NCBI GenBank assembly: GCA_902761575.1 | Contig: CACWKU010000001.1 | Span: forward strand, 22,435 to 86,434 | Length of the DNA: 64,000 bases | Direction of reading: 5' to 3' | Source: an uncultured bacterium | GTDB taxonomy: Bacteria > Verrucomicrobiota > Kiritimatiellia > RFP12 > UBA3636 | Shown: positions 8,201 to 63,265 of the stretch, in pieces | Position numbering within the stretch: the first letter of the stretch is position 1 | Layout: the number at the start of each line of letters is the position of its first letter | The notes under the pieces: generated by a model | What the model was told of the DNA's origin: nothing | The model's input: the letters and a program-made list of their open reading frames with translations, nothing else | Databases searched by the model: none | Program-made: the position numbers and the translations under genes

Positions 8201-10795
8201 CCACTTGACGTCGTTCGGGCACTGGGGGACGAGAAGCTTGTAGCCGCTTGGGCCGCCCGCGCCGTCGAGGTAGCGCTGAATGTTCGACATCTCGTTGATC
8301 GTGAACGAATTGTCGACGCCGCACTGGCCGTATCCGTGAAGGAACACGACGACGGGAACCTTGCCGCCGTTCGGATCGGCCTTCGCCGCGACGCGGTAGG
8401 GGAGCTGAAGCTTGTTGGACGCGATGAAGGTCTTCTTGACGAATTCGCCGGTCAGGTCGTCGCCGCCGCCACCACCGCCGCCGCCGCCACCGCCGAGCTC
8501 GCGGAGCTGAATGGCCTTGACGAGGCATTTGCTGCCGGAGGTGGCGAACGTGACGGTCACGGTCTCCTGCGCGCCCGTCGCCTCGAACACGCGCGAAATG
8601 ACGGCGCCGCACTTGTAGTCGTTCTGCTTGGTGGCCTCGAACGGAACGAGATCGCCGGCGGAGAGCGTCGTCGAGGAATTGTTCCAGTGGTTGGCGGCGA
8701 GAATCTGGACCAGGTACTTCTTCCCGGCCGTGAGCCCCTGGAGGGTGAAGGCAAGGTCCAGCGAGGAGTCGCTCTTCTCCCACACCCAGCCGCCGTTGAA
8801 CACCGGGTTGTTCTCCGTCCAGCCCGCGCCGGCGTACGACGAGGGCGAGACCGTCGCCTGGTCCGAGCCCGGGAAGCCCGCGGAGAACGAGACGCCGTTG
8901 ACAGTGTGCCCGGTGAAGCCGCGCGCGAAGACCTGCGTGCCGTCGCTGCGGAACGCCGAGCCCGTCGCGTCCATCGGCGCGACCTTCCAGCCGACGGCGT
9001 CGGCCTGGGAATCGATCTGGAACTTGACGCGCTTCACGGCGGACATCACGACGCCGTCCGACGAAACCCAGACCGCGCAGGTGTGCCAGCCGTCGGCGAG
9101 GTCCGCGAGCTCGAACGAGGCCGAGGAGCCCGTCTCCGCCGCGGGAAGCGCCGTCTCGGCGCCCGCGTCGAGCTTGTAGGAGACCGCGAAGGACGCAGCG
9201 GCCGCGCCGCTCGCGTCCGTGCCCTTCGTCACGTTCGAAAGCGAGATCGTCGCCGACGTGCCGCTGACCTGCGCGGCGGCGGAGCCGATCGTCGGAAGCA
9301 CGACGGGCGAGGCGCCGGCCGTCGCCATCGCGCTGGCGATCGCGGGCGCGAGGATCTCCTCGTAGGCCTTCGTGGTCAGGTGCAGGAACTGGTCGGGATA
9401 GTCGCCGTTGCCCTGGAGGTACATCTCGCCGCGGTACGTCCCGTCGGCGTTCAGGAACTGGCTGCGGACGTCGACGAGGATCACGCGCTCTCCGTCCGCG
9501 AACGTCCGGATGATCTCGTTCGCCGCCTCGTTGTTGGCGTAGTGCGCGGCGCCCTTCGCGCCGTTCTGCGCGTTCGTGTAGCCGTAGGGGATGATCGGCA
9601 TCAGGAGGACCTTCGACTCGGGATGCTTCGCGAGGATGAGGTCGAGCACGGCGCGCACGCCCGCGGCGATGTCCGCGGGATCCTCGCTCGGATTCTTCCC
9701 GATCGTGTTGTTCGTGCCGATCAGCAGGTTGAAGAACTTCGTCGTGTAGCCGTCGATGCAGCCGCTCTCGAGGCGCCACAGCAGGTTCTCCACGAAGTCG
9801 CCGGTCCGGCCGAGGTTCAGGACGTTGGCGGCGAGTCCGTTCATGGACGAGGCGCTGTTCCCCTCCATCCACTTCTGAGTGAGGGAGTCGCCGAGGAGGA
9901 CGAGATCGAAGCTCCGGCCGTTTTCGCCGATGAGCTTCAGGTCGTCCTCGAACTTCCGCCAGAAGGCGTCCTGCAGATCGGCGTTGACCGCCGTCGGGAA
10001 CGTCGCGATGCGGTCGATCTCGGGACGCGCCGTCGCCACGAGGTCGGCGGGCATCGCGGAGCCGCCCGCCGCGGCGGCGACGTAGGGCGCGACCGCCTGG
10101 GCCCAGACCTCGTAGCCGGCCGCGTTCAGCGTGACGCGGTCGGCATTGAAGAGCGAGGTCTTCAGCGTGTGGTGGTCGTTCTCGAGGAAGAGGTCCGACA
10201 TGTCCACCCAGGCGCATCCCTTCTTCTGCGCGTACGCGCGAACGTCGATGTTCAGGCGGTCGTTGCGCGGACGCACGGGATCGGACTCGTCGAGCCCGCG
10301 CGGAAGCACCGCCTGCACGACGACCTTGGACGCGCCAACGCTTGCGACGAGGTCGTCGATGATTTCGCGCACGCCCAGGTACGTCTTCCCCTCCGGCTCC
10401 TCCTTCTCGGTGTAGATCGCGGCGTTGTTGCCGCCGACCATCAGGAAGACGACCTTGGGGCTGCCGAGCTCGCCGTTCCGGATGCGCCAGAGGACGTTCT
10501 CCGTGCAGTCGCCGGCGAAGCCGAGGTTGAACATTGTCCTGTCGCCGGTGAAGTAGGTCGCGAGCGCGCCCGCGCCCGTCGTCTCCCAGTCCTGCGTCAG
10601 CTCGTCGCCGAGGAAGACGATGTCCTTCCTGATGGAACTGTCGGCCACCGCCGCGACCTTCTCGGCGTGGCGCGCCGTCCACCAGGCGTCGAGCCGCGAG
10701 GCGGGGGTGTTCGCGCGGATGGACACCGCGGGTGCGTTCACAGCGGCCATCGCGAGGATCGCCGCGGACAGGAACGTGAAGGAGTGGGGTTTCAT
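5249..10795 (-). CDS. Giant secreted multi-esterase (1848 aa): 2 SGNH domains, an alpha/beta (CE1/PHB-depolymerase-like) esterase, 4 Ig-like repeats, 3 'QVR' modules, poly-Gly linkers and a conserved C-terminal tail
   Basis: Track ORF 5249..10888 trimmed to the ATG at 10795 (MKPHSFTFLSAAILAMAAVNAPA signal peptide). Motifs: IVFLGDELTQDW and LVLLGDSLTQKW/GTNN (SGNH); VVVFLHGYGQCG and GLSMGGHGTW (Ser-hydrolase elbow). Gly runs of 9-11 residues. Modules end KAIQLRELG, NAVQVRELD and ALQVRDLGE. The tail ends HHFYRAILTR. Confidence 0.9.
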   Translation of the reverse strand: MKPHSFTFLSAAILAMAAVNAPAVSIRANTPASRLDAWWTARHAEKVAAVADSSIRKDIVFLGDELTQDWETTGAGALATYFTGDRTMFNLGFAGDCTENVLWRIRNGELGSPKVVFLMVGGNNAAIYTEKEEPEGKTYLGVREIIDDLVASVGASKVVVQAVLPRGLDESDPVRPRNDRLNIDVRAYAQKKGCAWVDMSDLFLENDHHTLKTSLFNADRVTLNAAGYEVWAQAVAPYVAAAAGGSAMPADLVATARPEIDRIATFPTAVNADLQDAFWRKFEDDLKLIGENGRSFDLVLLGDSLTQKWMEGNSASSMNGLAANVLNLGRTGDFVENLLWRLESGCIDGYTTKFFNLLIGTNNTIGKNPSEDPADIAAGVRAVLDLILAKHPESKVLLMPIIPYGYTNAQNGAKGAAHYANNEAANEIIRTFADGERVILVDVRSQFLNADGTYRGEMYLQGNGDYPDQFLHLTTKAYEEILAPAIASAMATAGASPVVLPTIGSAAAQVSGTSATISLSNVTKGTDASGAAAASFAVSYKLDAGAETALPAAETGSSASFELADLADGWHTCAVWVSSDGVVMSAVKRVKFQIDSQADAVGWKVAPMDATGSAFRSDGTQVFARGFTGHTVNGVSFSAGFPGSDQATVSPSSYAGAGWTENNPVFNGGWVWEKSDSSLDLAFTLQGLTAGKKYLVQILAANHWNNSSTTLSAGDLVPFEATKQNDYKCGAVISRVFEATGAQETVTVTFATSGSKCLVKAIQLRELGGGGGGGGGGGDDLTGEFVKKTFIASNKLQLPYRVAAKADPNGGKVPVVVFLHGYGQCGVDNSFTINEMSNIQRYLDGAGGPSGYKLLVPQCPNDVKWAEFSMNSTTCTFQDKPSAALQAVFDLLDAYAAMADVDADRIYVTGLSMGGHGTWDAICRRPDFFAAAMPCCGGGDPACAADIAHVPVLAVHNRGDPTIPVEQTEGIVTALRALGSDVIFEKLENNSHDAWTTCYATEDDVTAGAPNHRFVWMFAQNRATNNRPKYPRIAELAAAPSGSNATISLTGVVLGTDANSVPATKYSVAYKLDGAAAVTALSDQTSEDCSFTLEGLADGNHTCEVTMTTDKGRAKTKSVVFYVNTSAVSDVWTSGYMDAGGTAFSTEGTFVYGYVCNGGTINGIPFERSVNLQSSENPPKISFTPNIDGFTGDFMNESVGGNLGLSLGNGWYWDSDGSGTHTVTLTLSNLEGGKIYLVQFLAHNYWNNTTTVSANGCDPVHIHGDNEASGKYGALVTGVFTAVGATKDVTITYQGGSGKMPFNAVQVRELDGGGGGGGGGGATVVEPSIGSVTATPDGSTASLFLSGIVMGTDDAGTDATSYSVSYALNGGTAVTALQNQTGATASFAIENLADGDYTCVVTIATDKGKTSAAKSVSFRIGTPPPPVIAPSIAAATANVAGSNATVTLSGIVLGTDDAGAAASSYSVSYALNGGTAVAALANQTDDTASFSIENLADGSYACAVTVTTDKGKTATKSVSFAVNTSGGGGSVVEGWTVATLSASDETMLRTDGTLLYAYRGASTDRTLGGVTFQAGANLSGASISFAPTFVGADVSAGSSSLLGTVWDFGVDTGMGEIHLTLSGLTAGHAYLLQILARNSYGNAYITIGDLPSVSIQNGNGSSGATVYGSFTAESSSHVVTFKMGGSGAARYVAALQVRDLGEAGGGGFQDWPEDPDTAITDATSPADLGLTGGAFAEAGTTTAELRRLSKWARANGVPFGGADVNAMSFDADGNPDNALSAAYLLNCAVAGLDEAKSAFRFAGIDPGTVPAIAGTYNGTVTVFGADALSGPWQPATDQHHFYRAILTR

Positions 10796-48841: not shown

Positions 48842-48943
48842 GCAAGAAATTGTACCATCCGCTCCGTGCCCTCCCCGTGCCCCTCGCTCGCCCCGCGCCG
48901 GGTCGGCGGTGGTCGTAGCTCGCATCGCTCGGTCCCGAAAACC

Positions 48944-49027
48944 AACAAACTCCCGAGTGTTTATTCAACAAACTCCCGAACGATTCTTCAACAAACTCCC
49001 GGACGAAATTTCAACAAACTCCCGAAC
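48944..49027 (+). repeat. Four direct repeats of CAACAAACTCCCGR (iteron/operator-like), period 22-23 bp, ending 3 nt before the -35 of the ATPase promoter
   Basis: Repeat starts at 48944, 48966, 48989 and 49012. The 14-nt core is identical except for R. The spacers are AT-rich and not conserved. Confidence 0.8.
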
Positions 49028-49067: not shown

Positions 49068-50348
49068 ATGAAACGGTACGCGAAGAGAGTGGCGGATAGT
49101 TTGCTCGCCCGAAAGCTCCAAGGGCTAGGCGCCGTTCTCGTCCAAGGGGCCAAATGGTGCGGCAAGACAACGACCTGCGAACAGGTCGCCAAGAGCGTTC
49201 TGTACATGGGCGACCCGAAGAAGCGCAAGGAGAATCTGGAGATGGCGTCGATCGACGTCACATCGCTTCTGGAGGGTGCGAAGCCAAGGCTCATCGACGA
49301 ATGGCAGGTCGCACCCGTGTTTTGGGACGCGATCCGCCACGCGGTGGACCACGCCGACGGTCCGGGGCAGTTCATCCTGACCGGCAGCGTGGTTCCCCCG
49401 AAGACCGAGGAGAAGACCCATAGCGGGACGGGGCGGATCGCCCGTCTCACCATGCGCCCGATGACGCTCTGGGAAAGCGGTGAGTCGAGCGGAACGATCT
49501 CCCTCGCCGAACTGTTTTCGGGAACGGCCCCGGATAGCGCCCGCGCCATGGGGCGCGAACTGGAGGAGATCGCGTTCCTCGCCTGCCGGGGCGGATGGCC
49601 CCAGGCGGTCCTTCGGAAGGGCGACGTCGCCCTCGACCTCGCCTTCGACTACGTGGACTCGGTCGCGGACGAGGACATCTCGCGCGTGGACGATGTGAGG
49701 CGCGACCCCGCGCGCGCCCGACGCCTTCTGCGCTCCTACGCGCGGCTCCAGGGCTCTCAGGCGAACCTCAAGGCCATCAAGCTTGACATGGCGGGCGGCG
49801 GGATCGACGCCCCGGACGAGGACACCGTCGCCTCCTACCGCGGCGCCCTCGAAAAGCTCTTCGTCGTGGAAGACGTGCCGGCCTGGTGTCCGAACCTTCG
49901 GTGCCGGACCCCTATCCGCACGAGCGGCACGCGCTGCTTCGTCGACCCGTCCATCGCTGCGGCGTCCCTCGGTCTCGGCCCGGGCGGCCTGATGTCCGAC
50001 CTGACGACGTTCGGCTTTTTCTTCGAAACGCTGGCCGTCCGCGACCTTCGCGTCTACGCAGAAGCCCTGTCCGGGAGCGTCGCCCACTACCGTGACGCCT
50101 CCGGGCTCGAATGCGACGCCGTCATCCATCTCCGCAATGGCGCCTACGGTCTCGTCGAGGTCAAGCTCGGCGGCGACCGACTCGTTGCCGAAGGCGTGGA
50201 AACCCTCCTGGCCTTCTCAGGCAAGATCGACACCGACGCAATGAAGGCGCCGGCGTTCCGTATGGTCCTTACGGCCGTCGGCGACTATGCCTACCGTCGT
50301 CCGGCCGATGGCGTCTACGTCTGTCCCCTCTCCGCTCTCTGTCCCTGA
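49068..50348 (+). CDS. AAA+ ATPase of the AAA_14/DUF4143 type (426 aa)
   Basis: Track ORF. Walker A GAKWCGKTT. The C-terminal ..HYRDASGLECDAVIHLRNGAYGLVEVKLGG.. is typical of DUF4143 proteins. Preceded by a low-GC region with a near-consensus promoter and four direct repeats. Confidence 0.85.
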   Translation: MKRYAKRVADSLLARKLQGLGAVLVQGAKWCGKTTTCEQVAKSVLYMGDPKKRKENLEMASIDVTSLLEGAKPRLIDEWQVAPVFWDAIRHAVDHADGPGQFILTGSVVPPKTEEKTHSGTGRIARLTMRPMTLWESGESSGTISLAELFSGTAPDSARAMGRELEEIAFLACRGGWPQAVLRKGDVALDLAFDYVDSVADEDISRVDDVRRDPARARRLLRSYARLQGSQANLKAIKLDMAGGGIDAPDEDTVASYRGALEKLFVVEDVPAWCPNLRCRTPIRTSGTRCFVDPSIAAASLGLGPGGLMSDLTTFGFFFETLAVRDLRVYAEALSGSVAHYRDASGLECDAVIHLRNGAYGLVEVKLGGDRLVAEGVETLLAFSGKIDTDAMKAPAFRMVLTAVGDYAYRRPADGVYVCPLSALCP

Positions 50349-53231: not shown

Positions 53232-54626
53232 TCAGGCGAAGTGCGAGAGCGGCGCCTTGCCGATGGCGCGGACGTGGAACCCGAGCTCGAAGAGCTCGCG
53301 GCGGTCGAGGCAGTTGCGGCCGTCGAAGACGAAGGCCGGCTTGCGCATCCTCGCGAAGATCCGCGCCCAGTCGAGCTCCGGGAACTGGCGCCAGTCCGTG
53401 AGGACCGCGACGGCGTCCGCGCCCTCGACGGCCGTGTAGGGATCCTCCTCGAACGAGACGAGGTCGCCGTGGCGCGCGAGCTCCTTCCGCGCGTTCGGGA
53501 GCGCGTAGGGGTCGCACACGACGAGCTGCGCGCGCTCCTCGGCGAGCAGGTCCGCGACGACCTTCGCGGGCGTCTCGCGCGTGTCGGACGTGTCCGCCTT
53601 GAACGCGTAGCCGAGGATCGCGATGCGCTTGCCCGCGACGGTGTTGAACATCGCGTGGACCATCTCGGCGACGAAGCGCGTCTCCTGGTGCTCGTTCATC
53701 TCGACGACGGAGTTCCAGTAGGCCGCGGCCTCCGTCAGGCCCCGCTGCTCGCAGAGGTAGACGAGGTTGAGGATGTCCTTCTTGAAGCACGAGCCGCCGA
53801 AGCCCACGCCGGCGCGGAGGAACTTCGGCCCGATGCGCGAGTCGCGGCCGATGGCGCGCGCGACCTCGTCGACGTCGGCGCCCGTCTTCTCGCACAGCTC
53901 CGTGAGCGCGTTCACGCTCGAGATGCGCTGGGCGAGGAAGGCGTTGGCGGCGAGCTTCGAGAGCTCGGAGGACCAGACGTTGGTGGTGAGGATGCGGTCG
54001 CGCGGCACCCACTCGGCGTAGATGTCGACGACCGCCTCGCGCGCGGCGGCGCCGGTCGGGGTCTCGTCGGAGCCGACGAGCACGCGGTCGGGCTTCTCGA
54101 GGTCGGCGATCGCGGTGCCCTCGGCGAGGAACTCGGGGTTGGAGAGCACCTCGAAGCGGTGCGCGCCGCCGGACTCGAGCACGCGCTTCATCGCCGTCGC
54201 GGTGCGGACGGGGAGCGTGCTCTTCTCGACCACGATCAGGTCGTGCGTCGCGCACTCGCGGATCTCGTGCGCGGTCTTCTCCCAGTACTGCAGGTCGGCC
54301 GCGCGCCCGGCGCCCTGGCCGAAGGTCTTGGTGGGCGTGTTGACCGCGACGAACACGACGTCCGCCTCCGCGATCGCGGCGGGGATGTCGGTCGAGAAGA
54401 AGAGGTTGCGCCCGAGCGTCTCCGCGACGACCTCCTTGAGGCCGGGCTCGTAGAACGGGAGCGCGTCGGACTGCCACGCGGCGATGCGCTTCGCGTCGAT
54501 GTCGACGACCGTGACCTTGCGGTCCGGGCACTTTTTGGCGATCATCGCCATCGTGGGGCCGCCGACGTAGCCGGCGCCGATGCACAGGATGTTCGTGAGC
54601 TTTTTCGGGGTCTTGACGGTCTTCAT
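53232..54626 (-). CDS. ugd: UDP-glucose 6-dehydrogenase (464 aa)
   Basis: C-terminal part of track ORF 53232..55364, trimmed to the ATG at 54626 (MKTVKTPKKLTNILCIGAGYVGGPT, Rossmann fold). Catalytic-Cys block GFGGSCFKKD. Overall similarity to long (eukaryote-like) UGDH. Confidence 0.95.
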   Translation of the reverse strand: MKTVKTPKKLTNILCIGAGYVGGPTMAMIAKKCPDRKVTVVDIDAKRIAAWQSDALPFYEPGLKEVVAETLGRNLFFSTDIPAAIAEADVVFVAVNTPTKTFGQGAGRAADLQYWEKTAHEIRECATHDLIVVEKSTLPVRTATAMKRVLESGGAHRFEVLSNPEFLAEGTAIADLEKPDRVLVGSDETPTGAAAREAVVDIYAEWVPRDRILTTNVWSSELSKLAANAFLAQRISSVNALTELCEKTGADVDEVARAIGRDSRIGPKFLRAGVGFGGSCFKKDILNLVYLCEQRGLTEAAAYWNSVVEMNEHQETRFVAEMVHAMFNTVAGKRIAILGYAFKADTSDTRETPAKVVADLLAEERAQLVVCDPYALPNARKELARHGDLVSFEEDPYTAVEGADAVAVLTDWRQFPELDWARIFARMRKPAFVFDGRNCLDRRELFELGFHVRAIGKAPLSHFA

Positions 54627-54706
54627 GGTCTGGATGGTCTGGATGGTCGGGATGGTCGGGATGGTCAGAGGGTCAGAGGGTCGGGATGGTCCTGATGGTC
54701 GGGAGG
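54627..54706 (-). repeat. Tandem 8-9-nt GACCATCS-type repeats filling the whole fcl-ugd intergenic region and abutting the ugd ATG
   Basis: Sense strand: TGA cctcc CGACCATCA GGACCATCC CGACCCTCT GACCCTCT GACCATCC CGACCATCC CGACCATCC AGACCATCC AGACC ATG. Confidence 0.9.
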
Positions 54707-55648
54707 TCACCGCTCCACGCGCATCGGGTTCTCGAGGAAGTCCCTGTAGGCGAGCTTGAGGCCGTCCTCGAGGGAGGTCTTCGGCCTCCAGCCGAGGGCG
54801 ATGGAGCGGGAGAGGTCGAGCAGCTTGCGCGGCGTGCCGTTCGGGCGGGTGCGGTCCCAGCGGATCTCGCCCTCGTAGCCGACGGTGCGCGCGACGAGCT
54901 CGGAGAGCGCCTTGATCGTGATCTCGCGCCCGGAGCCGGCGTTGATCGGGTCGTCGCCGTGGTAGCGCTCCATCACGAGGAGGCAGAGGTCGGCCAGGTC
55001 GTCCACGTAGAGGAACTCGCGAAGCGGCGAGCCGTCGCCCCAGCAGGTCACGAAGGGCGCCTTCGCCTCCTTCGCCTCGTGGAAGCGGCGGATCAGCGCG
55101 GGCAGGACGTGGCTGTGCTCCGGGTGGTAGTTGTCGTTCGGGCCGTAGAGGTTCGTCGGCATCACGGAGACGTAGTCCGCGCCGTGCTGGCGGTTGAGGT
55201 AGGCGCAGTACTTGAGGCCCGCGATCTTCGCGAGCGCGTAGCCCTCGTTCGTCGGCTCGAGCGCGCTCGTGAGCAGGCAGGACTCCGGCATCGGCTGCGG
55301 CGCGAACTTCGGGTAGATGCACGACGAACCGAGGAAGAGGAGCTTCCGGCAGCCGTTCCTCCACGCGGCGTGGATCGCGTTCATCTCCAGCATCGCGTTG
55401 TCGTAGAGGAAGTCCGCCGGCGCGGCGGCGTTCGCCGCGATGCCGCCGACCTTCGACGCGGCGAGGAAGACGTAGTCCGGCCTCTCCTCCGCGAAGAAGG
55501 CGTCCGTGGCGCGCTGGTCGCGCAGGTCGAGCTCCGCGTGCGAGCGGACGACGATGTTCTCGAAGCCGCGGCGCTTCAGCGCGCGGATGATGGCGGAGCC
55601 GACCATCCCGCGATGGCCTGCGACGTAGATCTTGGCGTTTGGTTCCAT
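54707..55648 (-). CDS. fcl: GDP-L-fucose synthase (GDP-4-keto-6-deoxymannose 3,5-epimerase/4-reductase, 313 aa)
   Basis: Track ORF. Motifs [30 protein letters not shown] (Y-x-x-x-K), [11 protein letters not shown]. Confidence 0.95.
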
Positions 55649-55688
55649 GGTCTGGATGGTCCGATGGTCCGGATGGTCCGATGGTCAG
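55649..55688 (-). repeat. Tandem GACCATCS repeats abutting the fcl ATG
   Basis: Sense strand: CT GACCATCG GACCATCCG GACCATCG GACCATCCA GACC ATG (a 17-nt unit, twice). Confidence 0.9.
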
Positions 55689-55824
55689 AAGTGGCGCGCG
55701 GCATCATGAATTCGACATGGCGCGTTGCGATGGGCGCGGAGTCTAGCAGAGGGGTCGGCGGGAACGGAAGGGACGGAGTTGACCGTTTCTAGCACGATTT
55801 TGACTTGCTTTCCGGGCGGGCCGA

Positions 55825-55833
55825 TGATAGCAT
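55825..55833 (+). promoter_or_regulatory. Extended -10 element (TGaTAGCAT) 6 nt upstream of the AraC-regulator ATG (leaderless-type)
   Basis: TGATAGCAT at 55825-55833. TTGACT at 55800-55805 is 22 nt upstream of TAGCAT (17 nt from an alternative GATGAT). Confidence 0.3.
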
Positions 55834-55839
55834 GGACCC

Positions 55840-56691
55840 ATGAAACGTGCGCAGAACGAGGAGTCCGCCCCCCGGCGGCGGCTCTGCACACCGGACGGTT
55901 TTGCACGGTCGTCTCTCCTCCACGTGCAGGAGATCGGCGAGCTTGCTCCGTCACGTCCGATGACGAGCCGGCGCGCGGGATTCCCGTCGCTTCTCTTCCT
56001 GCTCGCCGAGTGGGGCGAAGGCGTGGTCCGCGAGGGCGCCGAGGAGCGTCCGCTGCGCGCCGGGGAGTGCGCGCTGCTGGACTGCCGCCGCGGGTGCGGA
56101 CACGCGACGGGCGAGCCGCCGTGGCGGCTCAAGTGGATCCACTTCGACGGACCCGGCGCGGCGGCGTTCGGCGAGAGATGGCGTGAGCGCGCCGGCGGAC
56201 CGGTCCTGCGCGCGACGTCGCCGGAGCGCTACCGGCGCGCGTGGGAGGAGGTCTGGGCCGCGGTCTCGTCGGAGGACGACCCGATCCGCGACCTCCGCGC
56301 GAACGAGGGGCTCGCCTCGCTCTGCACGCTGCTGATGCAGGACGCTCTCGGGACGGAGCCCGACCGGCGCGCGGAGCGCCTCGCGGCGGTGCGCTCCTGG
56401 ATCGATGCGCACTGCGCGGAGGAGGTCGCGCTCGACCGTCTCGCGGCGGTGGCGCACCTCAACAAGTACACGCTCGTGCGCGAGTTCCGCGCGCGGTACG
56501 GCGTGCCGCCGATGCGCGCCCTGGCGCAGGCTCGCGTCTCGAGGGCCAAGCGCCTGCTCCGCTTCACGGACGACACCGTCGAGACGATCGGCGCGGCGGT
56601 CGGAGTCCCCGACCCGAACTACTTCGCGCGCCTCTTCCGCCGCGTCGAGGGCCTCTCGCCGCGCGCCTTCCGCGAACGCTGGCGGGAATGA
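55840..56691 (+). CDS. AraC-family transcriptional regulator (283 aa)
   Basis: Track ORF. N-terminal cupin-like sensor. C-terminal double HTH (..LNKYTLVREFRARYGVPPMRALAQARVSRAKRLL..IGAAVGVPDPNYFARLFRRVEGLSPRAFR). Confidence 0.85.
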   Translation: MKRAQNEESAPRRRLCTPDGFARSSLLHVQEIGELAPSRPMTSRRAGFPSLLFLLAEWGEGVVREGAEERPLRAGECALLDCRRGCGHATGEPPWRLKWIHFDGPGAAAFGERWRERAGGPVLRATSPERYRRAWEEVWAAVSSEDDPIRDLRANEGLASLCTLLMQDALGTEPDRRAERLAAVRSWIDAHCAEEVALDRLAAVAHLNKYTLVREFRARYGVPPMRALAQARVSRAKRLLRFTDDTVETIGAAVGVPDPNYFARLFRRVEGLSPRAFRERWRE

Positions 56692-56713
56692 CGCCCGCCC
56701 TTCCCCTGGTAGA

Positions 56714-57556
56714 ATGACGGACTTAGTTCCCAGACTCTCCTTCTCGACCCTCGGCTGCCCCGGATGGGACGCTTCGCGCATCGTCGAGACCGCCGTCGCC
56801 TCCGGCTACGGCGCCATCGACTTCCGAGGCTATCTCGACGACGTCGAGCTTCCCGAAAGCCCTGCCTTCCGCTCCGGCGCGCTCCGGGAGCTCGCCGCGC
56901 GCGTCCGCGACGCAGGTCTCGCGGTCTCGTGCCTCGGCAGCGGCGCGAAGATGACTGCCCCCGACGCCGCCGCCCGCGCGCGAGAGCTCGACACGATGCG
57001 CCGCTACGCCGACCTGTGCGCACCGCTCGGGTGCCGGCAGGTCCGCATCTTCGGCGGAGCGGCGGAGGAGATCGCGGACCCCGTCCAGAACGCGGCCGAA
57101 ACGCTCGTCGCGGCATCGGAGATCGCGCGGAACGCGGGGATCGAGTTCGCCGTCGAGACCCACGACTCCTGGACCGATACGGGGAAGCTGCGCGCGGCGT
57201 TCGACGCCGCGGGCCGTCCGGACGGCATCACGCTGCTCTGGGACGTCCACCATCCGTGGGCGGCGAAGGGCGAAGCGCCGGAGGTCTCGGCGCGGAATCT
57301 CGCGCCGTTCATCGGCAACACGCACTGGAAGGACTCCCGCCCGATGCCCGGCGGAAAGCGTCGGCTCTGCCTGCCGGGCGAGGGAGACGCGCCCCTGGGC
57401 TCGATCCTCGAAGCGCTCTCCTCCACCGGATACGACGGCTGGCTCACGTTCGAATGGGAGAAGCGCTGGCACCCCGAGATCGAGGAGCCCGAAGTCGCAA
57501 TCCCCGCGTTCGCGCGCTTCATGCGAGGCCTCTTCGCAAAGGCACTCGAGCCGTAG
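56714..57556 (+). CDS. Xylose-isomerase-like TIM-barrel protein (sugar phosphate isomerase/epimerase family, 280 aa)
   Basis: C-terminal part of track ORF 56405..57556, trimmed to the ATG at 56714 (MTDLVPRLSFSTLGCPGW..). This is the only in-frame start after the araC stop, 22 nt upstream. The family style ..IDFRG.., ..VRIFGG.., ..FAVETHD.., ..LTFEWE.. is present. Confidence 0.85.
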   Translation: MTDLVPRLSFSTLGCPGWDASRIVETAVASGYGAIDFRGYLDDVELPESPAFRSGALRELAARVRDAGLAVSCLGSGAKMTAPDAAARARELDTMRRYADLCAPLGCRQVRIFGGAAEEIADPVQNAAETLVAASEIARNAGIEFAVETHDSWTDTGKLRAAFDAAGRPDGITLLWDVHHPWAAKGEAPEVSARNLAPFIGNTHWKDSRPMPGGKRRLCLPGEGDAPLGSILEALSSTGYDGWLTFEWEKRWHPEIEEPEVAIPAFARFMRGLFAKALEP

Positions 57557-57573
57557 GGGCGCGCCGGAGTCCG

Positions 57574-59790
57574 TCAGCGAACGTCGATCCGCGCGGAGGC
57601 GCGGAGGGAGGCGGAGAGCTCGAATTCGCCCGCCTCGAAGCGGCGGGTGCCGTCGGGCTGCATCGCGGCGAGATCCTTGCGCGAGAGCGACAGCTTCACC
57701 GTCTTCGTCTCGCCCGGCTTCAGCGAGACCTTCTCGAATCCGACGACGCGCCGCACCGGCTGGGTGCTCGTGCTCTCGAGGTCCGAGAGATACCAGATCA
57801 CGGTCTCCGCGCCGGCGCGCCTGCCGGCGTTCCTCACCGTCACGGACGCCTCGACGCGCCCGCCGCGGCGCACGGCGGCCTTCGCCTTCCCGTATTCGAA
57901 CGTCGTGTAGGAGAGGCCGTAGCCGAACGGCAGCCACGGGTCGTTCTCGTGCGGACAGTCGAGGTAGTCGAAGAGGTTCTCGCGGCTGCGCGGCTGGGCG
58001 TTGTAGAACACCGGGATCTGCCCGACGGCGCGCGGGAAGGTCATCGCGAGGCGGCCGGAGGGGTTCGCGGCGCCGGTGACGAGCTCCCACGCGGCCTGGG
58101 CGGCGCGCGAGCCGCCCTGCCAGAGGTAGAGGATCGCGTCGAGCTTCGCGGCGGTCTCGGAAAACGCGAGCGGACGTCCCGCGGCGACGAGGCCGACGAG
58201 CGGCCGGCCGGTCTCCGCGAGGGCGTCGACGAGCGCCTCCTGCGCGGGCGAGAGGCGGATGTCGCGGCGCGACTTGTATTCGCCCGAGAGCCAGCCCGGC
58301 TCGCCGAGCGCGACGACGACGACGTCCGCGGCGCGCGCGGCGCGGACCGCCTTCGCGATCGCGGCGCGGTCCGGCGGCAGGCCCGGATCGAGGATCGAGC
58401 CCTCGACGAAGTCGACCGTACGCAGCCGCGGCGCGCCCTCGGGCGGCAGCGCGCAGCCCGGCGCGTAGTCGATCCTCGCGTTCGGGAAGAAGCGCGCGGC
58501 CTCGTCCCGGAGCGACGGCGTCTCCTCGTGGTTCTTCGCGCACATCGCCGCCCACGTGCCGACGAGCGCGGGGCAGTCGTCCGCCGCCGGGCCGACGAGC
58601 GCGAGGCGCTTCACCTTCCTCGGATCGAGCGGGAGCAGCCCCCCCTCGTTCTTGAGCAGGACGGCGCAGCCGCGCGCGCACTCGGCCGCGAGGTCGAGGT
58701 CGGCGGGCAGGCGGCAGGTCCTCTCGCGCGGGAGCTCGGGGACGTAGGGATGCTCGAAGAGGCCGCACTCGAACTTGACGCGCAGCACGCGCTCCACGGC
58801 GCGGTCGAGCACGTGCATCGGAAGGCGGCCGGCCTTGACGAGGGCCGGGATGTTGCGGAAGACGTCGTCCGACATGTCCATGTCGTTGCCGGCCGTGAGC
58901 GCGGCGAGCGTCTGGACGGCCGGGTCGGAGCTGTAATGCTGGATGCGCAGCTGCGAGACGGCGCCCCAGTCGGAGACGACGAAGCCGTCGAAGCCCCATT
59001 CGCCGCGGAGGATGTCCGTCAGCGTCTCCCGGTTCGCGACGGCGGGCGTGCCGTCGATGCAGTTGAAGGAGCTCATGAGCGTCCGCGCGCCGGCGCGCAC
59101 GCCCGCCTCGAACGGCGGCAGATACCACTCGCGCAGCGCCCGCGCCGAGATCTCCGTGTAGGAGTAGTCGCGCCCGCCCTCGCTCGCGCTGTAGCCGACG
59201 AAGTGCTTGAGGCAGGCGACGACGCGGCCCGGCTTCCGCAGGTCCGCGCGGCGGCGCCCCTGGTAGCCGCGGACGGCGGCCGCGGCGAAGACGCCGTTCG
59301 TGAACGGGTCCTCGCCGTAGCCCTCGACGTTGCGGCCCCAGCGCGGATCGTGCCCGACCTCGACCATCGGGGAGAAGGTCCAGTCGACGCCGCCGTCCGT
59401 CCAGCACTCGCGCGCCGCGACTCGGCACGCCCTCTCCGTGAGCGACGGGTCGAACGAGCAGGACTGCGCGAGCGGGACGGGGAAGCCCGTGCGCCAGCCG
59501 TGGATGACGTCGTAGCCCCAGAGGATCGGGATGCCGAGGCGCGTCCCCTCGACGGCCATGCGCTGGAACGCGTTGCGCGCGGCGGCGCCGCCGGTGAAGG
59601 AGAGGACGGAGCCGATCGTCGGGTCGAACGGATGGTCGGGCCCGACGTTGTTCGGATTGGTGTCGCGGCCGATCGGGTTCTGGATCAGCTGCGCGGCCTT
59701 CTCCTCGAGCGTCATGCGGCGGAGCAGGTCGCGCACGCGCGCCTCGGCGGGCTTCTTCGGATCCTTGTACGGGGGGAGTTTCGTTTTCAT
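57574..59790 (-). CDS. bglX: GH3 beta-glucosidase/beta-hexosidase (BglX-like, 738 aa)
   Basis: C-terminal part of track ORF 57574..61119, trimmed to the ATG at 59790 (MKTKLPPYKDPKKPAEARVRDLLRRMTLEEKAAQL). Motifs GYDVIHG, KHFVGY, GFVVSDWGA (nucleophile Asp context). Its start overlaps the upstream stop as ATGA. The symbol is a family-level guess. Confidence 0.9.
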   Translation of the reverse strand: MKTKLPPYKDPKKPAEARVRDLLRRMTLEEKAAQLIQNPIGRDTNPNNVGPDHPFDPTIGSVLSFTGGAAARNAFQRMAVEGTRLGIPILWGYDVIHGWRTGFPVPLAQSCSFDPSLTERACRVAARECWTDGGVDWTFSPMVEVGHDPRWGRNVEGYGEDPFTNGVFAAAAVRGYQGRRRADLRKPGRVVACLKHFVGYSASEGGRDYSYTEISARALREWYLPPFEAGVRAGARTLMSSFNCIDGTPAVANRETLTDILRGEWGFDGFVVSDWGAVSQLRIQHYSSDPAVQTLAALTAGNDMDMSDDVFRNIPALVKAGRLPMHVLDRAVERVLRVKFECGLFEHPYVPELPRERTCRLPADLDLAAECARGCAVLLKNEGGLLPLDPRKVKRLALVGPAADDCPALVGTWAAMCAKNHEETPSLRDEAARFFPNARIDYAPGCALPPEGAPRLRTVDFVEGSILDPGLPPDRAAIAKAVRAARAADVVVVALGEPGWLSGEYKSRRDIRLSPAQEALVDALAETGRPLVGLVAAGRPLAFSETAAKLDAILYLWQGGSRAAQAAWELVTGAANPSGRLAMTFPRAVGQIPVFYNAQPRSRENLFDYLDCPHENDPWLPFGYGLSYTTFEYGKAKAAVRRGGRVEASVTVRNAGRRAGAETVIWYLSDLESTSTQPVRRVVGFEKVSLKPGETKTVKLSLSRKDLAAMQPDGTRRFEAGEFELSASLRASARIDVR

Positions 59791-61496
59791 GGTGTGGTGT
59801 ACCGGGAACTTGATGAGCGGGAAGCGGAAACATCCGGCGTGGCGCCGTCGGCGCGGAGGCGCAGGGCGAGCCCGCCCTCCGGGGGCTCCTCGACGATCGC
59901 CTCGACGCGACCGAGCCCGGCCGCGGCGTGGAAGGCGAGGACGGCCGCGTCGAGAATCCCGGAGACCTCGGGGTCGAGGCGCAGCCCGAACTTCGCCGCA
60001 AAGCCCGCGAGCGCGTTCGCCGTGCGGACCTGCGCCGCGAGGCGCGGCATGTCCGCGCGCAGCGCGAGGAGCGCGGCGGGGTGCGCACCCCGCCACGCCG
60101 CCACGACCTGGCCGACGGTCTCGCCGCTCCCCTCCCCCGCCCCGCCGGTCAGCGCGTTCCACGCGCCCCGGCCGAGGCCGAGGTCGAGCCGACCCGCGGT
60201 AGCGTCCTCGGAGACGAACGCGCAGTCCGCCTCCGGCGTCTGGCCGAGCAGCTCGAACTTCTTCGCGCGGACGAGCCGCGTGGCGGGGTCCGGCGCCGAG
60301 TCGCGAAGGCGCAGGTCCACGTCCGCCTTGAGCGCCTCGAACCACGGCGGCCACCACTGCGCGAGCGGCGCCGCGGGATCGGCGGGAAGCGAAAGCGCGA
60401 GCGACGGCACCTCGAGGATCGCCAGGTGCGTCGCGTTCGGACGGTCCGCCGCCCACGCGACCGCCGTGCCTTCGCCGAAGGGCGGCAGGCCCGAGTCGGC
60501 CGGGATCCACCCCTTCGCGACCGGCGCGGCGACGAGGAGGAACGCCGCGTCCGCCGGCGCACGCGCCGCGGCGCCCGCGAGGGGCGCGGCGGCGCCGAGC
60601 GACGGGTCGGGGAGGCTGGACCGTATCCCGGAGCCGACCATGGCGTCGAGCTCGATGCCCGGGCGCCTGAACGACGCGAGGTCGAGCGTGAAGGGATTGC
60701 AGTCGAACGCGTAGGGACCGAGGTCGTAGGGCTGCACCCAGATGCGGTGGCGCTTGCGGATCTCGCGCCAGGGCTCCGGTTCGCGGTCGGCCTGGACCGG
60801 GCCGCCTGCCTTGAAGCATCCGGCGAGACGCTGCCAGGAGTCCGTCTTCCCCGCGACGCGCGCCGCGAGCTCGGCTACGCGGTCCGGGTCCTGCGCGAGG
60901 ACGGCGACGAGGACGCCGTCGACGATATCGAGGCCGAGGACGATGCCATTGTCGCGCAGCTCGCGGGCGTGCGGGAACTCCATGTAGCGCGTGCCCTTCG
61001 CGGTGGTGCGCAGCGGCCCGAGGCCGGGCACCCACCTGATGCGCCAGAGCAGCTCCAGCGCGCGCGCCTTCCAGCCGACGTAGCTCGCGCCCGCGAGGTA
61101 GCCGCCGAGCCCGGCGCATTCGCCCTCCTCCGGGACGACGCCGACGACCGAGTTCTCGCCCGTGAGCCAGAAGAGCGTCCAGAAGACGCCGGCGTTGTCG
61201 TCGATCGCGTCCTCCGGATCGCCGCCGAGCGCGCGCAGCGCGTACTGGAACGACGGGTTGCGCAGGAGTGCGCGGTCCTCCATCGCGAGGTTGCGCACGT
61301 AGGCCGCGGCGGCGGTCCGCTCCGGCAGCGCATAGAAGAGCTCCGCCCGGTCCATCGGATACCAGAAGAACCAGAGCGCGACGGCGGCGATCGCGCAGCG
61401 ACGCAGCGCCTTGCGGCGCCGCCGCGCCCAGGCGCGCGGCCCCGTGGCGGGGTCCGCCCCCGCGGCGAGAAATTCGTCGTCGTCCATGTCGCCCAT
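59787..61496 (-). CDS. Hypothetical membrane-anchored protein (569 aa), translationally coupled to the GH3 gene
   Basis: Track ORF. N-terminal R-rich segment, then a TM helix (CAIAAVALWFFWY). Balanced composition with many W/F/Y, and no family recognised. Carries a near-perfect copy of the 24-nt palindrome (60073-60096, WRGAHPA). The alternative start ATG at 61487 may be the real (leaderless) start. Confidence 0.6.
   Translation of the reverse strand: MGDMDDDEFLAAGADPATGPRAWARRRRKALRRCAIAAVALWFFWYPMDRAELFYALPERTAAAAYVRNLAMEDRALLRNPSFQYALRALGGDPEDAIDDNAGVFWTLFWLTGENSVVGVVPEEGECAGLGGYLAGASYVGWKARALELLWRIRWVPGLGPLRTTAKGTRYMEFPHARELRDNGIVLGLDIVDGVLVAVLAQDPDRVAELAARVAGKTDSWQRLAGCFKAGGPVQADREPEPWREIRKRHRIWVQPYDLGPYAFDCNPFTLDLASFRRPGIELDAMVGSGIRSSLPDPSLGAAAPLAGAAARAPADAAFLLVAAPVAKGWIPADSGLPPFGEGTAVAWAADRPNATHLAILEVPSLALSLPADPAAPLAQWWPPWFEALKADVDLRLRDSAPDPATRLVRAKKFELLGQTPEADCAFVSEDATAGRLDLGLGRGAWNALTGGAGEGSGETVGQVVAAWRGAHPAALLALRADMPRLAAQVRTANALAGFAAKFGLRLDPEVSGILDAAVLAFHAAAGLGRVEAIVEEPPEGGLALRLRADGATPDVSASRSSSSRYTTP
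60073..60096. repeat. Near-perfect (23/24) copy of the same palindrome inside hypothetical CDS 59787..61496
   Basis: GCGGCGGGGTGCGCACCCCGCCAC. It encodes ..AWRGAHPAAL.. in the same relative frame as the copy at 16839. Confidence 0.9.
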
Positions 61497-61528
61497 TCTA
61501 GCAGAACGGGCGCCGGACTTCCACCCGC

Positions 61529-61557
61529 TTGCGTTTGCATGCCCTTTTCGCTAGTAT
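61529..61557 (+). promoter_or_regulatory. Sigma70-like promoter for rdgB(-galE-cdd)
   Basis: TTGCGT (61529-61534), 17 nt, TAGTAT (61552-61557). The ATG is 30 nt downstream. Confidence 0.45.
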
Positions 61558-61587
61558 TCCGGCCCCGCACGCCACCCCCGCCCCTCC

Positions 61588-62205
61588 ATGCGCCTCGTCC
61601 TCGCCTCCCGCAACTCCAACAAGCTCGTCGAGCTCCGCGCCCTCTGCGGCCTGCCGGCGGACTTCCTCGTCTCCGCCGCCGAATGCCCCGGCGCGCCCGA
61701 CCCCGAGGAGGATGCCGACACGTTCGTCGGCAACGCGCTCATCAAGGCGCGCGCGCTGCGCGACTTCTCGGGCGAGTGGGCGCTCGCCGACGACTCCGGG
61801 CTCGAGGTCGACGCCCTCGGCGGCGCGCCCGGCGTCCATTCCGCGCGCTACGCCGGCGTCCACGGCGAGGACGGCGCGAACAACGCGCTCCTCCTGCGCA
61901 ACCTCGACGCGCTCGGCCCGAAGGCCCCGCGCACATGCCACTTCTCCTGCGCGCTCGCCCTCGTCGCGCCCGACGGCCGCGAGTTCGTCGCGCTCGGCCA
62001 GTGCCCCGGCACGCTCCTGCGCGAGGGCCGCGGCACCAACGGCTTCGGCTACGACCCCCTCTTCCTCCCCGACGGCCGGGACAAGACCTTCGCCGAGCTT
62101 CCGCGCGAGGTGAAGTGCACCTTCTCCCACCGCGCCCGCGCCGCCGAACGCATGCGCCCCCTCCTCCGCTCCCTCTTCCCGACCCTCCCCCCTCCCCAAC
62201 CATAG
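61588..62205 (+). CDS. rdgB: Non-canonical purine NTP pyrophosphatase (RdgB/HAM1 family, 205 aa)
   Basis: Track ORF. Motifs LASRNSNKLVE, ADDSGLEVDALGGAPGVHSARY, GFGYDPLF, FSHRARA. Confidence 0.9.
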   Translation: MRLVLASRNSNKLVELRALCGLPADFLVSAAECPGAPDPEEDADTFVGNALIKARALRDFSGEWALADDSGLEVDALGGAPGVHSARYAGVHGEDGANNALLLRNLDALGPKAPRTCHFSCALALVAPDGREFVALGQCPGTLLREGRGTNGFGYDPLFLPDGRDKTFAELPREVKCTFSHRARAAERMRPLLRSLFPTLPPPQP

Positions 62206-62242
62206 ACCATCGGACCATCCCGACCATCGGACCATCCCGACC
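62206..62242 (+). repeat. Tandem GACCATCS repeats filling the rdgB-galE intergenic region and abutting the galE ATG
   Basis: TAG ACCATCG GACCATCCC GACCATCG GACCATCCC GACC ATG (a 17-nt unit, twice). Confidence 0.9.
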
Positions 62243-63265
62243 ATGCACATCCTCGTCACCGGCGGCGCCGGCTACATCGGCAGCCACACCTGCGTCGCGG
62301 CCTATGCCGCGGGCCATACGATCACGATCCTCGACAACCTGTCGAACAGCTCGCCCGAGTCCCTGAACCGCGTCGAGAAGATCAGCGGGAGGCGCCCGCG
62401 CCTCGTCGTGGGCGACATCGGCGACCGCTCCGTCGTCCGCTCCGTCCTCGACTCGGAGAAGTTCGACGCCGTCATCCACTTCGCCGGCTACAAGGCCGTC
62501 GGCGAGTCCGTCGCGAAGCCCTGGGAGTACTACCAGAACAACGTCGCGGGGACGCTCGTCCTCCTGGACGAGCTCCGGAGGCACGGGGTGCGCAACTTCA
62601 TCTTCTCCTCCTCGGCGACGGTCTACGGCAACCCCGACCCGAAGGACCTCCCGCTGAAGGAGACCGCGCCCCTTTCCGCCCTCAACCCCTACGGCGCGAC
62701 GAAGCTCTGGCTCGAGGAGATCATGCGCGCGATGGCCGCCGCCGATCCGGCGTGGCACTTCCTGCTGCTGCGCTACTTCAATCCCGTCGGCGCGCACGAG
62801 AGCGGCCTCATGGGCGAGGATCCCGCCGGCATCCCGAACAACCTGATGCCCTACATCACGCAGGTGGCGGTCGGCCGCCTGAAGGAGCTCACGATCTTCG
62901 GGAACGACTACCCGACGCCCGACGGCACCGGCGTCCGCGACTACATCCACGTGTGCGACCTGGCGGAGGGGCACGTCGCCGCGCTCGCAAAGGTCGCGGA
63001 CCTCCCCGGCTGCACCGCGATCAACCTCGGCTCCGGCTCGGGCGTATCCGTCGCGCAGCTCGTCGCCTCGTTCGAGAAGGCGATCGGCCGCCCGCTCCCG
63101 CACCGGTTCGGCCCGCGCCGCCCCGGCGACGCCGCGGCCTGCTACGCGGACGCCTCGAAGGCGCTGCAGCTCCTCGGCTGGAAGACGAAGCGCAACTCCG
63201 ACGACATGTGCCGCGACGCCTGGAACTGGCAGTCGAAGAACCCCAACGGCTACAAGAATGCGTAG
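62243..63265 (+). CDS. galE: UDP-glucose 4-epimerase (340 aa)
   Basis: Track ORF. Motifs MHILVTGGAGYIGSHT, SSSATVYG, NPYGATKLWLE (Y-x-x-x-K), RYFNPVGAH. Confidence 0.95.
   Translation: MHILVTGGAGYIGSHTCVAAYAAGHTITILDNLSNSSPESLNRVEKISGRRPRLVVGDIGDRSVVRSVLDSEKFDAVIHFAGYKAVGESVAKPWEYYQNNVAGTLVLLDELRRHGVRNFIFSSSATVYGNPDPKDLPLKETAPLSALNPYGATKLWLEEIMRAMAAADPAWHFLLLRYFNPVGAHESGLMGEDPAGIPNNLMPYITQVAVGRLKELTIFGNDYPTPDGTGVRDYIHVCDLAEGHVAALAKVADLPGCTAINLGSGSGVSVAQLVASFEKAIGRPLPHRFGPRRPGDAAACYADASKALQLLGWKTKRNSDDMCRDAWNWQSKNPNGYKNA

Follow-up and report, generated by a model that had tools for sequence, protein, structure and literature searches.

Tandem GACCATC arrays abutting the start codons of ugd, fcl and galE in an uncultured rumen bacterium of the Kiritimatiellia

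In cyanobacteria, short tandemly repeated repetitive (STRR) sequences form intergenic heptamer tandem arrays; a genome has several different units, one and the same unit recurs at many loci, and their function is unresolved. Intergenic heptamer direct repeats of the TAACTGA type have been described from marine Beggiatoaceae and also from some Cyanobacteria and Bacteroidetes (MacGregor 2015, PMC4679880). In BOGUAY they make up 169 sets of 2-6 copies, mostly in forward orientation and about 1 nt from the start codon, the ribosome-binding site (RBS) is mostly absent, some sets overlap the end of the upstream open reading frame (ORF) and the downstream genes follow no functional pattern; a translational role has been proposed and the function is unresolved (PMC4679880). 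In Haemophilus influenzae, simple sequence repeats (SSRs) of 7-9 nt upstream of hmw1A/hmw2A and other genes vary between strains in number and even in unit and can modulate expression (PMC2651432), and those of hmw act via a long hairpin with a G-rich arm that is cut by RNase III (PMC12721329). Translation initiation in which Shine-Dalgarno (SD) sequences are scarce is documented in Verrucomicrobiota (PMC10783764). The present analysis concerns a 64-kb window, meaning the whole stretch of DNA analysed, from contig CACWKU010000001.1 of an uncultured bacterium of the Kiritimatiellia, in which tandem arrays of a GACCATC unit run up to the start codons of the nucleotide-sugar genes ugd, fcl and galE (Table 1). 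The window has 69% G+C, and the sequence examined from this genome comprised these 64 kb and about 10 kb more. Exact protein matches of the locus were found in cattle-rumen metagenome assemblies (STEW19 and others).

The array unit is GACCATC followed by a linker of 1-2 nt, and Tandem Repeats Finder (TRF) together with the sequence gave 4-9 units of 8-9 nt at each of the three loci. In the sense direction the ugd array reads TGACCTCCC GACCATCAG GACCATCCC GACCCTCT GACCCTCT GACCATCCC GACCATCCC GACCATCCA GACCATCCA GACC-ATG; its first unit overlaps the fcl stop codon (TGAcc) and three of its nine units have a variant core. The fcl array reads GACCATCG GACCATCCG GACCATCG GACCATCCA GACC-ATG and the galE array, which begins at the G of the ham1 TAG stop, GACCATCG GACCATCCC GACCATCG GACCATCCC GACC-ATG, the two being identical in 36 of 38 positions and having a common layout in which a 17-nt higher-order unit occurs twice. 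All three arrays lie on the sense strand, with the ATG at the 3′ end and the TGA or TAG of an upstream frame at the 5′ end, as do those of L009, L098 and L133, which are treated below. TRF returned a period of 9 with 11.4 copies for ugd and a period of 17 with 2.4 copies for both fcl (95% matches) and galE (100%). In the whole window GACCATC was counted 34 times against 8.4 ± 2.9 in shuffles, 14 of the 34 falling within the three arrays, and GACCATCSNGACC with at most one mismatch 14 times against 1.6 ± 1.2, ten of them within the arrays; neither count was equalled by any shuffle. The three sense-strand arrays leading up to GACC-ATG, as described in the original prediction, are therefore confirmed by sequence, TRF and shuffles, and the earlier impression, gained by eye, that the motif is not found elsewhere in the window was also borne out, as no further tandem copy was present in it and the sole near miss was GACCGTCGAGACCGTCAGACC at 24098, inside a coding sequence (CDS). 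The galE leader had been called non-coding, with 37 nt between stop and ATG; this spacer length was recovered, and no in-frame ATG, GTG or TTG was found in the three spacers. A translated N-terminal extension was rejected for fcl and galE on account of an in-frame stop or the lack of an in-frame start upstream, and for the ugd spacer because the window allele has no in-frame start codon.

The start codon itself is a one-base variant of a repeat unit. The start contexts are GACCATGA for ugd and for an acetyltransferase gene of a related genome (L009, see below), GACCATGG for fcl, GACCATGC for galE and GCCCATGAA for cmk, a further array-bearing gene on a contig of the same species (L133), as compared with the unit GACCATC(C/G/A). 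GACCATG is one base from GACCATC, and at all five genes the ATG occupies, in register, the place of ATC in a unit. The original statement that the repeats run up to the ATG is correct for all three genes of the window, but the ugd array does not stop there: its TRF span, coding part included, is 54609-54708, and the first six codons continue in the same register (Table 1). The N-terminus of Ugd here is MKTVKTPKKLTNIL, whereas 40 homologues start with MKKLTNIL or similar, so that the added residues are absent from those 40, and a CCG codon stands in ugd at the position of the would-be ancestral ATG. Judged from the sequence, the simplest reading is that the ugd array would have originated by tandem duplication of the start-codon 9-mer, with a single copy then keeping its ATG.

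Contigs of the same species have flanking CDS that are 98.4-100% identical, yet their leaders differ. The fcl-ugd spacer of 80 nt with the same ugd allele was found in eight contigs with 100% identical flanks, and in lineages about 1-1.5% diverged (flanks 98.4-99.4% identical) the spacer is 149-191 nt long, with a different allele in every contig. The long spacers consist of three successive arrays, (AATGCTG) in about 4.7 copies, (TTCAACCN) in about 6 copies and (GACCATCNN) in 2-8 terminal units. The comparison of copy number between strains that had been suggested thus revealed variation at ugd, in the terminal units, and constant length at fcl, where the array is 38 nt in 14 of 14 contigs of the species, in both lineages, and shows point changes only. 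In L002, L004 and L006 the ham1-galE spacer reads TCGTCAC TTATCAC (TCGTCAC)5 TGAA-ATG and the GalE protein is identical; between alleles the galE leader is replaced, not resized, which speaks against a specific tie of galE to the GACCATC element. In L004 a ugd spacer of the window type occurs together with the alternative galE leader, so ugd and galE alleles reassort. The arrays behave as variable number tandem repeats (VNTRs), in that unit number and even unit sequence change between closely related lineages.

The alternative galE unit CTCGTCAC is identical to galE codons 4-6 (ATGCACATCCTCGTCACC, window 62252-62259), which hints at seeding of the array from adjacent coding sequence. Arrays of the order GAATGCT and then GACCATC/TTCAACC were found both before ugd (L128) and before the ExbB gene of another species (L061), and this recurrent composite order, together with the common layout of the fcl and galE arrays, suggests copying between loci. 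(GAATGCT)4.7 has the same copy number in several species (L001 13668-13700, L002 13668, L098 3475-3507, L009 3119-3151, L061 and L128). At a parC/gyrA-like gene it lies, as CATTCAG, in an open low-complexity N-terminal extension beside a hairpin and is either coding or part of a 5′ untranslated region (UTR); before ugd (L128) and exbB (L061) it has the opposite orientation and directly precedes the GACCATC-type arrays. As it may be coding at the parC-like gene and its orientation varies between loci, it was set aside as a leader element.

The repeats also left traces in the public records. N-gaps of scaffolds L002 and L130 lie inside the array, L130 repeating the 3′ end of fcl after its gap, and public gene calls in L128, L129, L132 and L136 lengthen ugd to 509-521 amino acids (aa) by way of the in-frame 9-nt array. 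The arrays thus cause artefacts of both annotation and assembly.

The original prediction had restricted the repeats to genes for nucleotide-sugar enzymes. Inside the window this holds, since Pfam scans of the other genes revealed no further nucleotide-sugar gene, but it fails in the species and in related metagenome-assembled genomes (MAGs). In contig L133 of the same species an array (GACCATCCC five times, GACCATCCG twice; GACCATCC type) is followed by CCC-ATG of the cytidylate kinase gene cmk; a chimeric assembly through the shared repeat (fcl-array-cmk) is possible for this contig, and the end of the array is still physically joined to cmk. One genome per GTDB species was scanned for GACCATCN{1,2}GACCATCN{1,2}GACC, which gave at least 120 loci, and among the matches listed were five rumen Kiritimatiellia/'Verrucomicrobia' MAGs with the array (L009, L061, L063, L098 and L104). 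The genome of the window itself was not in this list. The array of L009 ends in ...GACCATCC GACC-ATG of a GNAT acetyltransferase, that of L098 lies directly before an SDR gene, that of L061 ends 42 nt before ExbB with a G-free spacer between, and that of L063 precedes an unannotated ORF. GACCATC ends 0-3 nt from the ATG at ugd, fcl, galE, cmk, GNAT and SDR. With cmk, GNAT, SDR and ExbB genes also preceded by arrays, a control element shared by the enzymes for UDP-glucuronate (UDP-GlcA), GDP-fucose (GDP-Fuc) and UDP-galactose (UDP-Gal) is not supported.

Orthologous loci of relatives gave the same answer. Ugd orthologues with 84-91% protein identity stand in a different context (glmS-ugd) and have three kinds of leader, none with a GACCATC array: a (CGACCTT)10 array with 11% G whose end is 12 nt from the ATG (L218), a C-rich and G-poor spacer without repeats, with 14% G and a minimum free energy (MFE) of −1.5 (L219-L224), and a start that overlaps the upstream gene (L217). 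Fcl orthologues (84-87% identity) keep the divergent AraC-family neighbour and have no array. The array was present at one of 80 metagenome Ugd-homologue loci, the same-species one, and most of these homologues are 62-78% identical and too distant for dating it. The motif is specific to the species; orthologous loci have not conserved it, and it is linked to no particular gene function. Both of these findings, unrelated downstream genes and absence at orthologous loci, had been named beforehand as refuting the original prediction. The Ugd homologues with named sources belong to the Kiritimatiellia, and a MAG labelled 'Verrucomicrobia' has 91% nucleotide identity to the end of the window.

Against this background the main idea of the original prediction, a sequence-specific post-transcriptional regulon in which a protein that binds RNA (S1, Csp or KH-type) or a G-rich small RNA (sRNA) would recognise the repeated GACCATC core and co-regulate the genes, is considered unlikely. 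It would account for a 7-nt core that is kept at four loci of one species with variation concentrated in the 1-2-nt linker, for the identical 17-nt higher-order unit present twice at both fcl and galE, and for the recurrence of the core in the five related MAGs, and the TAACTGA repeats provide a precedent of the same anatomy, being forward, ending 1 nt from the start and lacking an RBS (PMC4679880). It is contradicted by downstream genes of unrelated function, by strains in which an identical GalE protein is preceded by a wholly different array, by ugd and fcl orthologues of relatives that lack the motif and by the variant core of three out of the nine units at ugd. Nor did any binding factor or sRNA emerge as a candidate, and the covariance models of Rfam 15 (riboswitches, leaders and sRNAs) gave 0 matches at the gathering threshold in the whole window. 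By inspection, CsrA sites (GGA) occur in some units only and the ARN pattern of Hfq is absent, and both were discarded.

The ugd leader has 51% C and 12% G, and its sense strand has an MFE of −6.1 kcal/mol as compared with −30.2 ± 7.1 for random 80-nt stretches of the window (top 0.2%), its complement folding at −28.3. The ugd initiation region (−40 to +20) is the least structured of 32 genes. The alternative galE leader (TCGTCAC)n has 12% G and an MFE of −2.1, and the replacement leaders of other strains and species keep the G-poor character with 11-14% G. Start codons (ATG, GTG or TTG) number 0 in the sense arrays versus 4-6 in the antisense direction. A C/A-rich unstructured leader was among the candidates named originally and is the best supported of them, though unproven; it characterises the leaders of this organism generally and is not a regulon signal, as C exceeds G at positions −30 to −1 in 21 of 29 non-array genes, with 25% G there versus 34% in CDS.

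The same holds for the lack of SD sequences. GGAG, GAGG or AGGA occurs at −20 to −4 in nine of 32 window genes and in none of the three array leaders, so the reported absence of SD sequences from the arrays stands, but the contrast drawn with the other genes does not, and this lack fails to set ugd, fcl and galE apart. Canonical pairing of the arrays with the anti-SD was rejected for want of any GGAGG-like sequence in them. The clearest SD-like signal in the window belongs to the GDSL-lipase-domain genes at 2975(−), 10795(−) and 12616(−), two of them encoding very large secreted proteins, which have the near-identical leader CA(A/C)ACACGAGG(N)2CAC(C/G)-ATGAA(A/G)C.

Codons 14-17 of fcl (window 55598-55608, sense GGGATGGTCGG) match the reverse complement of the array unit CCGACCATCCC exactly, giving a 10-nt complement to the array with four possible registers. 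Pairing between array and CDS is absent from the MFE fold of the fcl 5′ region, which is no more stable than shuffles (z = −0.56), and the match was dismissed as coincidence. Neither there nor in the ugd leader, with its MFE spread over 80 nt, was a long 5′-UTR hairpin with a G-rich arm seen.

A C-rich, G-poor tract could also load Rho. Rho-utilisation (rut) sites are richer in C than in G and unstructured, and comprise about 70-80 nt of RNA without ribosome cover. The ugd spacer, nearly structure-free over its 80 nt and with regularly spaced YC dinucleotides, would suit a putative attenuator of this sort, by which polarity within the fcl-ugd and ham1-galE pairs could be tuned, and the spacers have no intrinsic terminator. 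The fcl and galE tracts are, however, only 38 nt long, leaders with more C than G are the norm here, and tracts lying right at the start codon would be covered by initiating ribosomes, which makes this explanation very improbable.

At the level of DNA, the arrays might act as a tandem operator of 17-bp direct repeats for the divergent AraC-family regulator, or as a template-strand G-quadruplex affecting transcription. An AraC-family gene is divergent from fcl in the window and in relatives, the fcl and galE arrays are each 2 × 17-bp direct repeats, and the complementary strand of the ugd array has several GGG runs with short loops. A −10 element was inferred upstream of fcl (Table 1), which would place the fcl array inside a 5′ UTR of about 90 nt; a sigma-70 consensus scan did not detect this element, TGCTAGACT, and relative L225 has TGCTAGAAT with the same −10-like motif before fcl. 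The array would then lie about 50-90 nt downstream of the −10, the arrays of ugd, galE and cmk are intercistronic, relatives keep the AraC-fcl pair without any array, and copy number and unit sequence vary, so that a role of this kind is scarcely credible and the least probable of those considered. The −10-like motif TG(C/G)TAG(N)AT recurs upstream of genes at 14533(+), 43515(−), 46467(−), 56714(+), 61496(−) and 61588(+) in addition to fcl. At 56714 (TGGTAGA-ATG) and 61496 (TGCTAGA-ATG) the annotated ATG overlaps it, which points to leaderless mRNAs or mis-called starts. Another set of repeats at a promoter was observed at window 48943-49027 (+), where four 23-bp direct repeats (CAACAAACTCCCGA and 9 variable nt) lie directly upstream of a near-consensus promoter (TTGACA, 17 nt, TAGAAT) with a very short leader, followed by an AAA_14/DUF4143 ATPase gene with its ATG at 49068, an arrangement like that of tandem binding sites for an activator or of iterons.

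The explanation favoured here, though tentatively and at a strength just short of probable, is that the repeat leaders are generated by slippage and kept as unstructured regions for SD-independent initiation, the length of which may tune expression. The arrays would be transcribed as part of the mRNA, in the fcl 5′ UTR and in the fcl-ugd and ham1-galE intercistronic spacers, which have no terminator. Their anatomy suggests an origin in the start-codon context, through slipped-strand or tandem duplication, and they are probably also copied between loci. Being C/A-rich and G-poor on the sense strand, free of ATG, GTG, TTG and SD motifs and, clearly for ugd, barely foldable, they could provide open regions for SD-independent ribosome loading, and changes in unit number or sequence may tune translation or spacing like a rheostat. 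Composition, the lack of start codons, the lack of structure and the orientation are observed properties of the leaders, to which a selective reason for the persistence of the arrays may be attached. The arrays are part of a larger set of intergenic arrays with 7-9-nt units: the scanned loci (0.86 Mb) yielded 31 others and the Ugd loci (0.36 Mb) 19.

Several observations weigh against this explanation. The fcl and galE arrays, with MFEs of −8.0 and −8.6, fall within the top 22-28% of random stretches and are not exceptionally unstructured, and the recurrence of one ugd allele in all eight contigs with identical flanks shows that over short time spans the arrays are not hypermutable. A role based purely on composition predicts neither the same 7-nt core at four loci with a variable 1-2-nt linker nor the common 8+9+8+9+4 architecture of fcl and galE. 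Not all arrays of the clade are G-poor or 5′ of genes, as (CGTTTGAC)n abuts a radical-SAM start in L231; the array of L104 has no clear downstream gene, and in L225 eight consecutive different 7-9-nt arrays fill about 350 nt (8668-9020) of a convergent spacer (RNase_T + / AraC −). That initiation is favoured by open leaders and tuned by their length is the functional step, one that we infer.

Some of these points fit a neutral origin, in which the arrays are slippage-prone intergenic microsatellites or minisatellites that turn over by mutation and ectopic copying, and selection only removes harmful versions (antisense ATGs, SD-like GGA). Their presence in a convergent intergenic region would be expected, as would their species-specificity and absence at orthologous loci, the replacement of units and change of copy number between lineages about 99% identical, and the abundance of 7-8-nt arrays of many other units. 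With start codons missing from the sense arrays and 4-6 of them in antisense, purifying selection alone could explain the orientation as well. A neutral process would not, however, readily yield, at several loci independently, arrays that are flush with the start codon and have the ATG in register, nor hold the fcl array at invariant length in every contig of both lineages, and the non-repetitive orthologous spacers are equally G-poor and unstructured, which suggests that this property is selected and not merely tolerated. Neutrality is a real possibility but on the whole doubtful; if it applies, the finding is an ordinary one.

A bolder variant takes the start register at face value. The arrays would be reiterated pseudo-initiation sites, GACC-AUC mimicking GACC-AUG, that act as standby or recruitment sites for an SD-independent machinery (S1, a Csp/KH-type protein or the 30S subunit), sequence-specific, tunable by copy number and spread as a cassette. 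Slippage and ATC-ATG changes in the in-frame 9-nt VNTR could then shift both expression and the N-terminus (Ugd MKTVKTP-KKLTNIL), and the arrays would be a functional parallel to the unexplained TAACTGA network of Beggiatoaceae. This version is thought improbable.

Other arrays were met with at the scanned loci. Many of the listed GTDB matches are arrays of unrelated phyla or period-9 repeats that code for His/Asp-rich sequence, and 7-nt-class arrays were seen in Nostoc (L010) and Okeania (L070). The idea that GACCATC is special across bacteria was rejected, as the same loci hold many 7-8-nt arrays of unrelated units. The units in L225 8668-9020 are TTCGACT, CGACATG, CATTGGCAA, TTCCCCG, CTTCTCAA, TTTCCACA, AACTTTTC and GTTCCCC, all G-poor on one strand. 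Arrays of (CTCTGTG/TCTCTGTG)3 occur at unrelated loci (L225 15578-15641 and 19831-20347, L145 3601, L184 1406-1538), and the five copies in L225 have conserved flanks and a spacing of 72 nt, forming a higher-order repeat. In L042, L051, L088, L021 and L094 (Gemmatimonadales, Anaerolineae and Verrucomicrobiae) a GACCATC-type array has, upstream or downstream of it, an array close to its reverse complement, the two together making a long repeat-built hairpin. A −35-like box, TTGACATACCTCACC, comes after the array in L021 and L088. Right after the stop codon of Ugd homologues, (GGATTGC)8-26 was found in the environmental bacteria L184 (3859-3913) and L210 (3853-4036), and differing 7-8-nt repeats lie upstream of the Ugd homologues of L140, L145, L148, L174 and L191.

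The genes next to the arrays are given in Table 1; the identities assigned to ugd, fcl and galE were confirmed by the family matches listed there. The other genes of the window are mostly those of esterases, glycosidases and unknowns, with a nucleoside hydrolase and an NrtR/NUDIX regulator also present. For Fcl homologues below about 80% identity the nearest relatives with named sources are Selenomonas (Firmicutes) and not bacteria of the Planctomycetes-Verrucomicrobia-Chlamydiae (PVC) group, a pattern that would fit a horizontal transfer of this gene between rumen bacteria. The gene for a GDSL-lipase/immunoglobulin (Ig)-domain protein of 1848 aa has a 309-nt tandem duplication (1.8 copies, 80% identity) at window 6258-6828, presumably a repeated Ig-like domain.

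Table 1. Positions in the window of the leader arrays, the adjacent genes and associated elements.
Feature	Position	Strand	Remarks
ugd leader array	54627..54706	-	whole 80-nt fcl-ugd intercistronic spacer; ~9 units of GACCATCNN or GACCCTCT
ugd array continuation in CDS	54609..54626	-	codons 1-6 (MKTVKT): GACCATGAA GACCGTCAA GACCCCGAA, same 9-nt register
fcl leader array	55649..55686	-	38 nt, architecture 8+9+8+9+4; 3′ end of predicted ~90-nt 5′ UTR
-10 element of fcl-ugd transcript (TGCTAGACT)	55740..55748	-	inferred; ~92 nt before fcl ATG
galE leader array	62205..62242	+	38 nt, architecture 8+9+8+9+4; fills ham1-galE spacer
ugd, UDP-glucose 6-dehydrogenase	53232..54626	-	464 aa; PF03721, PF00984, PF03720, TIGR03026
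fcl, GDP-L-fucose synthase	54707..55648	-	313 aa; NF047922 at 464 bits, PF01370
ham1, RdgB/Ham1 NTP pyrophosphatase	61588..62205	+	cistron upstream of galE; final codons differ between two galE-leader alleles
galE, UDP-glucose 4-epimerase	62243..63265	+	340 aa; TIGR01179 at 432 bits

If the arrays tune SD-independent initiation, they would exemplify how a high-GC lineage poor in SD sequences builds ribosome-loading regions, and slippage could retune genes for surface-glycan precursors, and even move a start codon, in an abundant uncultured rumen clade. In practical terms, such arrays break or chimerise metagenome assemblies and mislead gene callers, as with the over-extended ugd (509-521 aa).

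Among the described systems, the H. influenzae SSRs are contingency or rheostat loci between promoter and start codon, at which different strains may have hepta-, octa- or nonanucleotide units. They are alike in having 7-9-nt units in a 5′ UTR or intercistronic spacer, with copy number (here at ugd) and unit (here at galE) varying between strains, at genes for surface structures. The hmw repeats, however, lie about 70-210 nt upstream in 12-38 copies, whereas the arrays here abut the ATG with 4-9 units and have no significant fold, and unlike hmw contingency loci no length change was seen among the eight contigs with identical flanks, which are consensus assemblies. With the cyanobacterial STRR sequences they share intergenic array families of the 7-nt class and several units per genome, but STRR sequences are not specifically start-abutting or ATG-registered, have AT-richer units and belong to another phylum. 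As in SD-independent initiation of Bacteroidota and some Verrucomicrobiota (PMC10783764), the SD is absent from most leaders and folding around the start is low, although the leader signal in Bacteroidota is A-rich and that of the present organism is rich in C, poor in G and, for three genes, composed of tandem repeats. The closest likeness is to the TAACTGA type, with short tandem direct repeats in sense orientation near the start codon, overlap with the end of the upstream ORF and no canonical SD. Downstream functions are mixed when species and clade are taken together (cmk, GNAT, SDR and ExbB). The unit differs, being GACCATC with a 1-2-nt linker (8-9 nt) as opposed to 7 nt, and the host is a rumen Kiritimatiellia bacterium of 69% GC; in addition, the ATG is itself a unit here and the array enters the CDS, and strain-level change of copy number and exchange for unrelated units were observed. 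The arrays add a second, independent lineage to the unexplained start-abutting direct repeats of Beggiatoaceae, which argues that the phenomenon is general. The GACCATC arrays are a new lineage and unit of a known kind of start-proximal repeat, to which they add the start codon as a unit, the extension of an array into the CDS and the occupation of one site by unrelated arrays.

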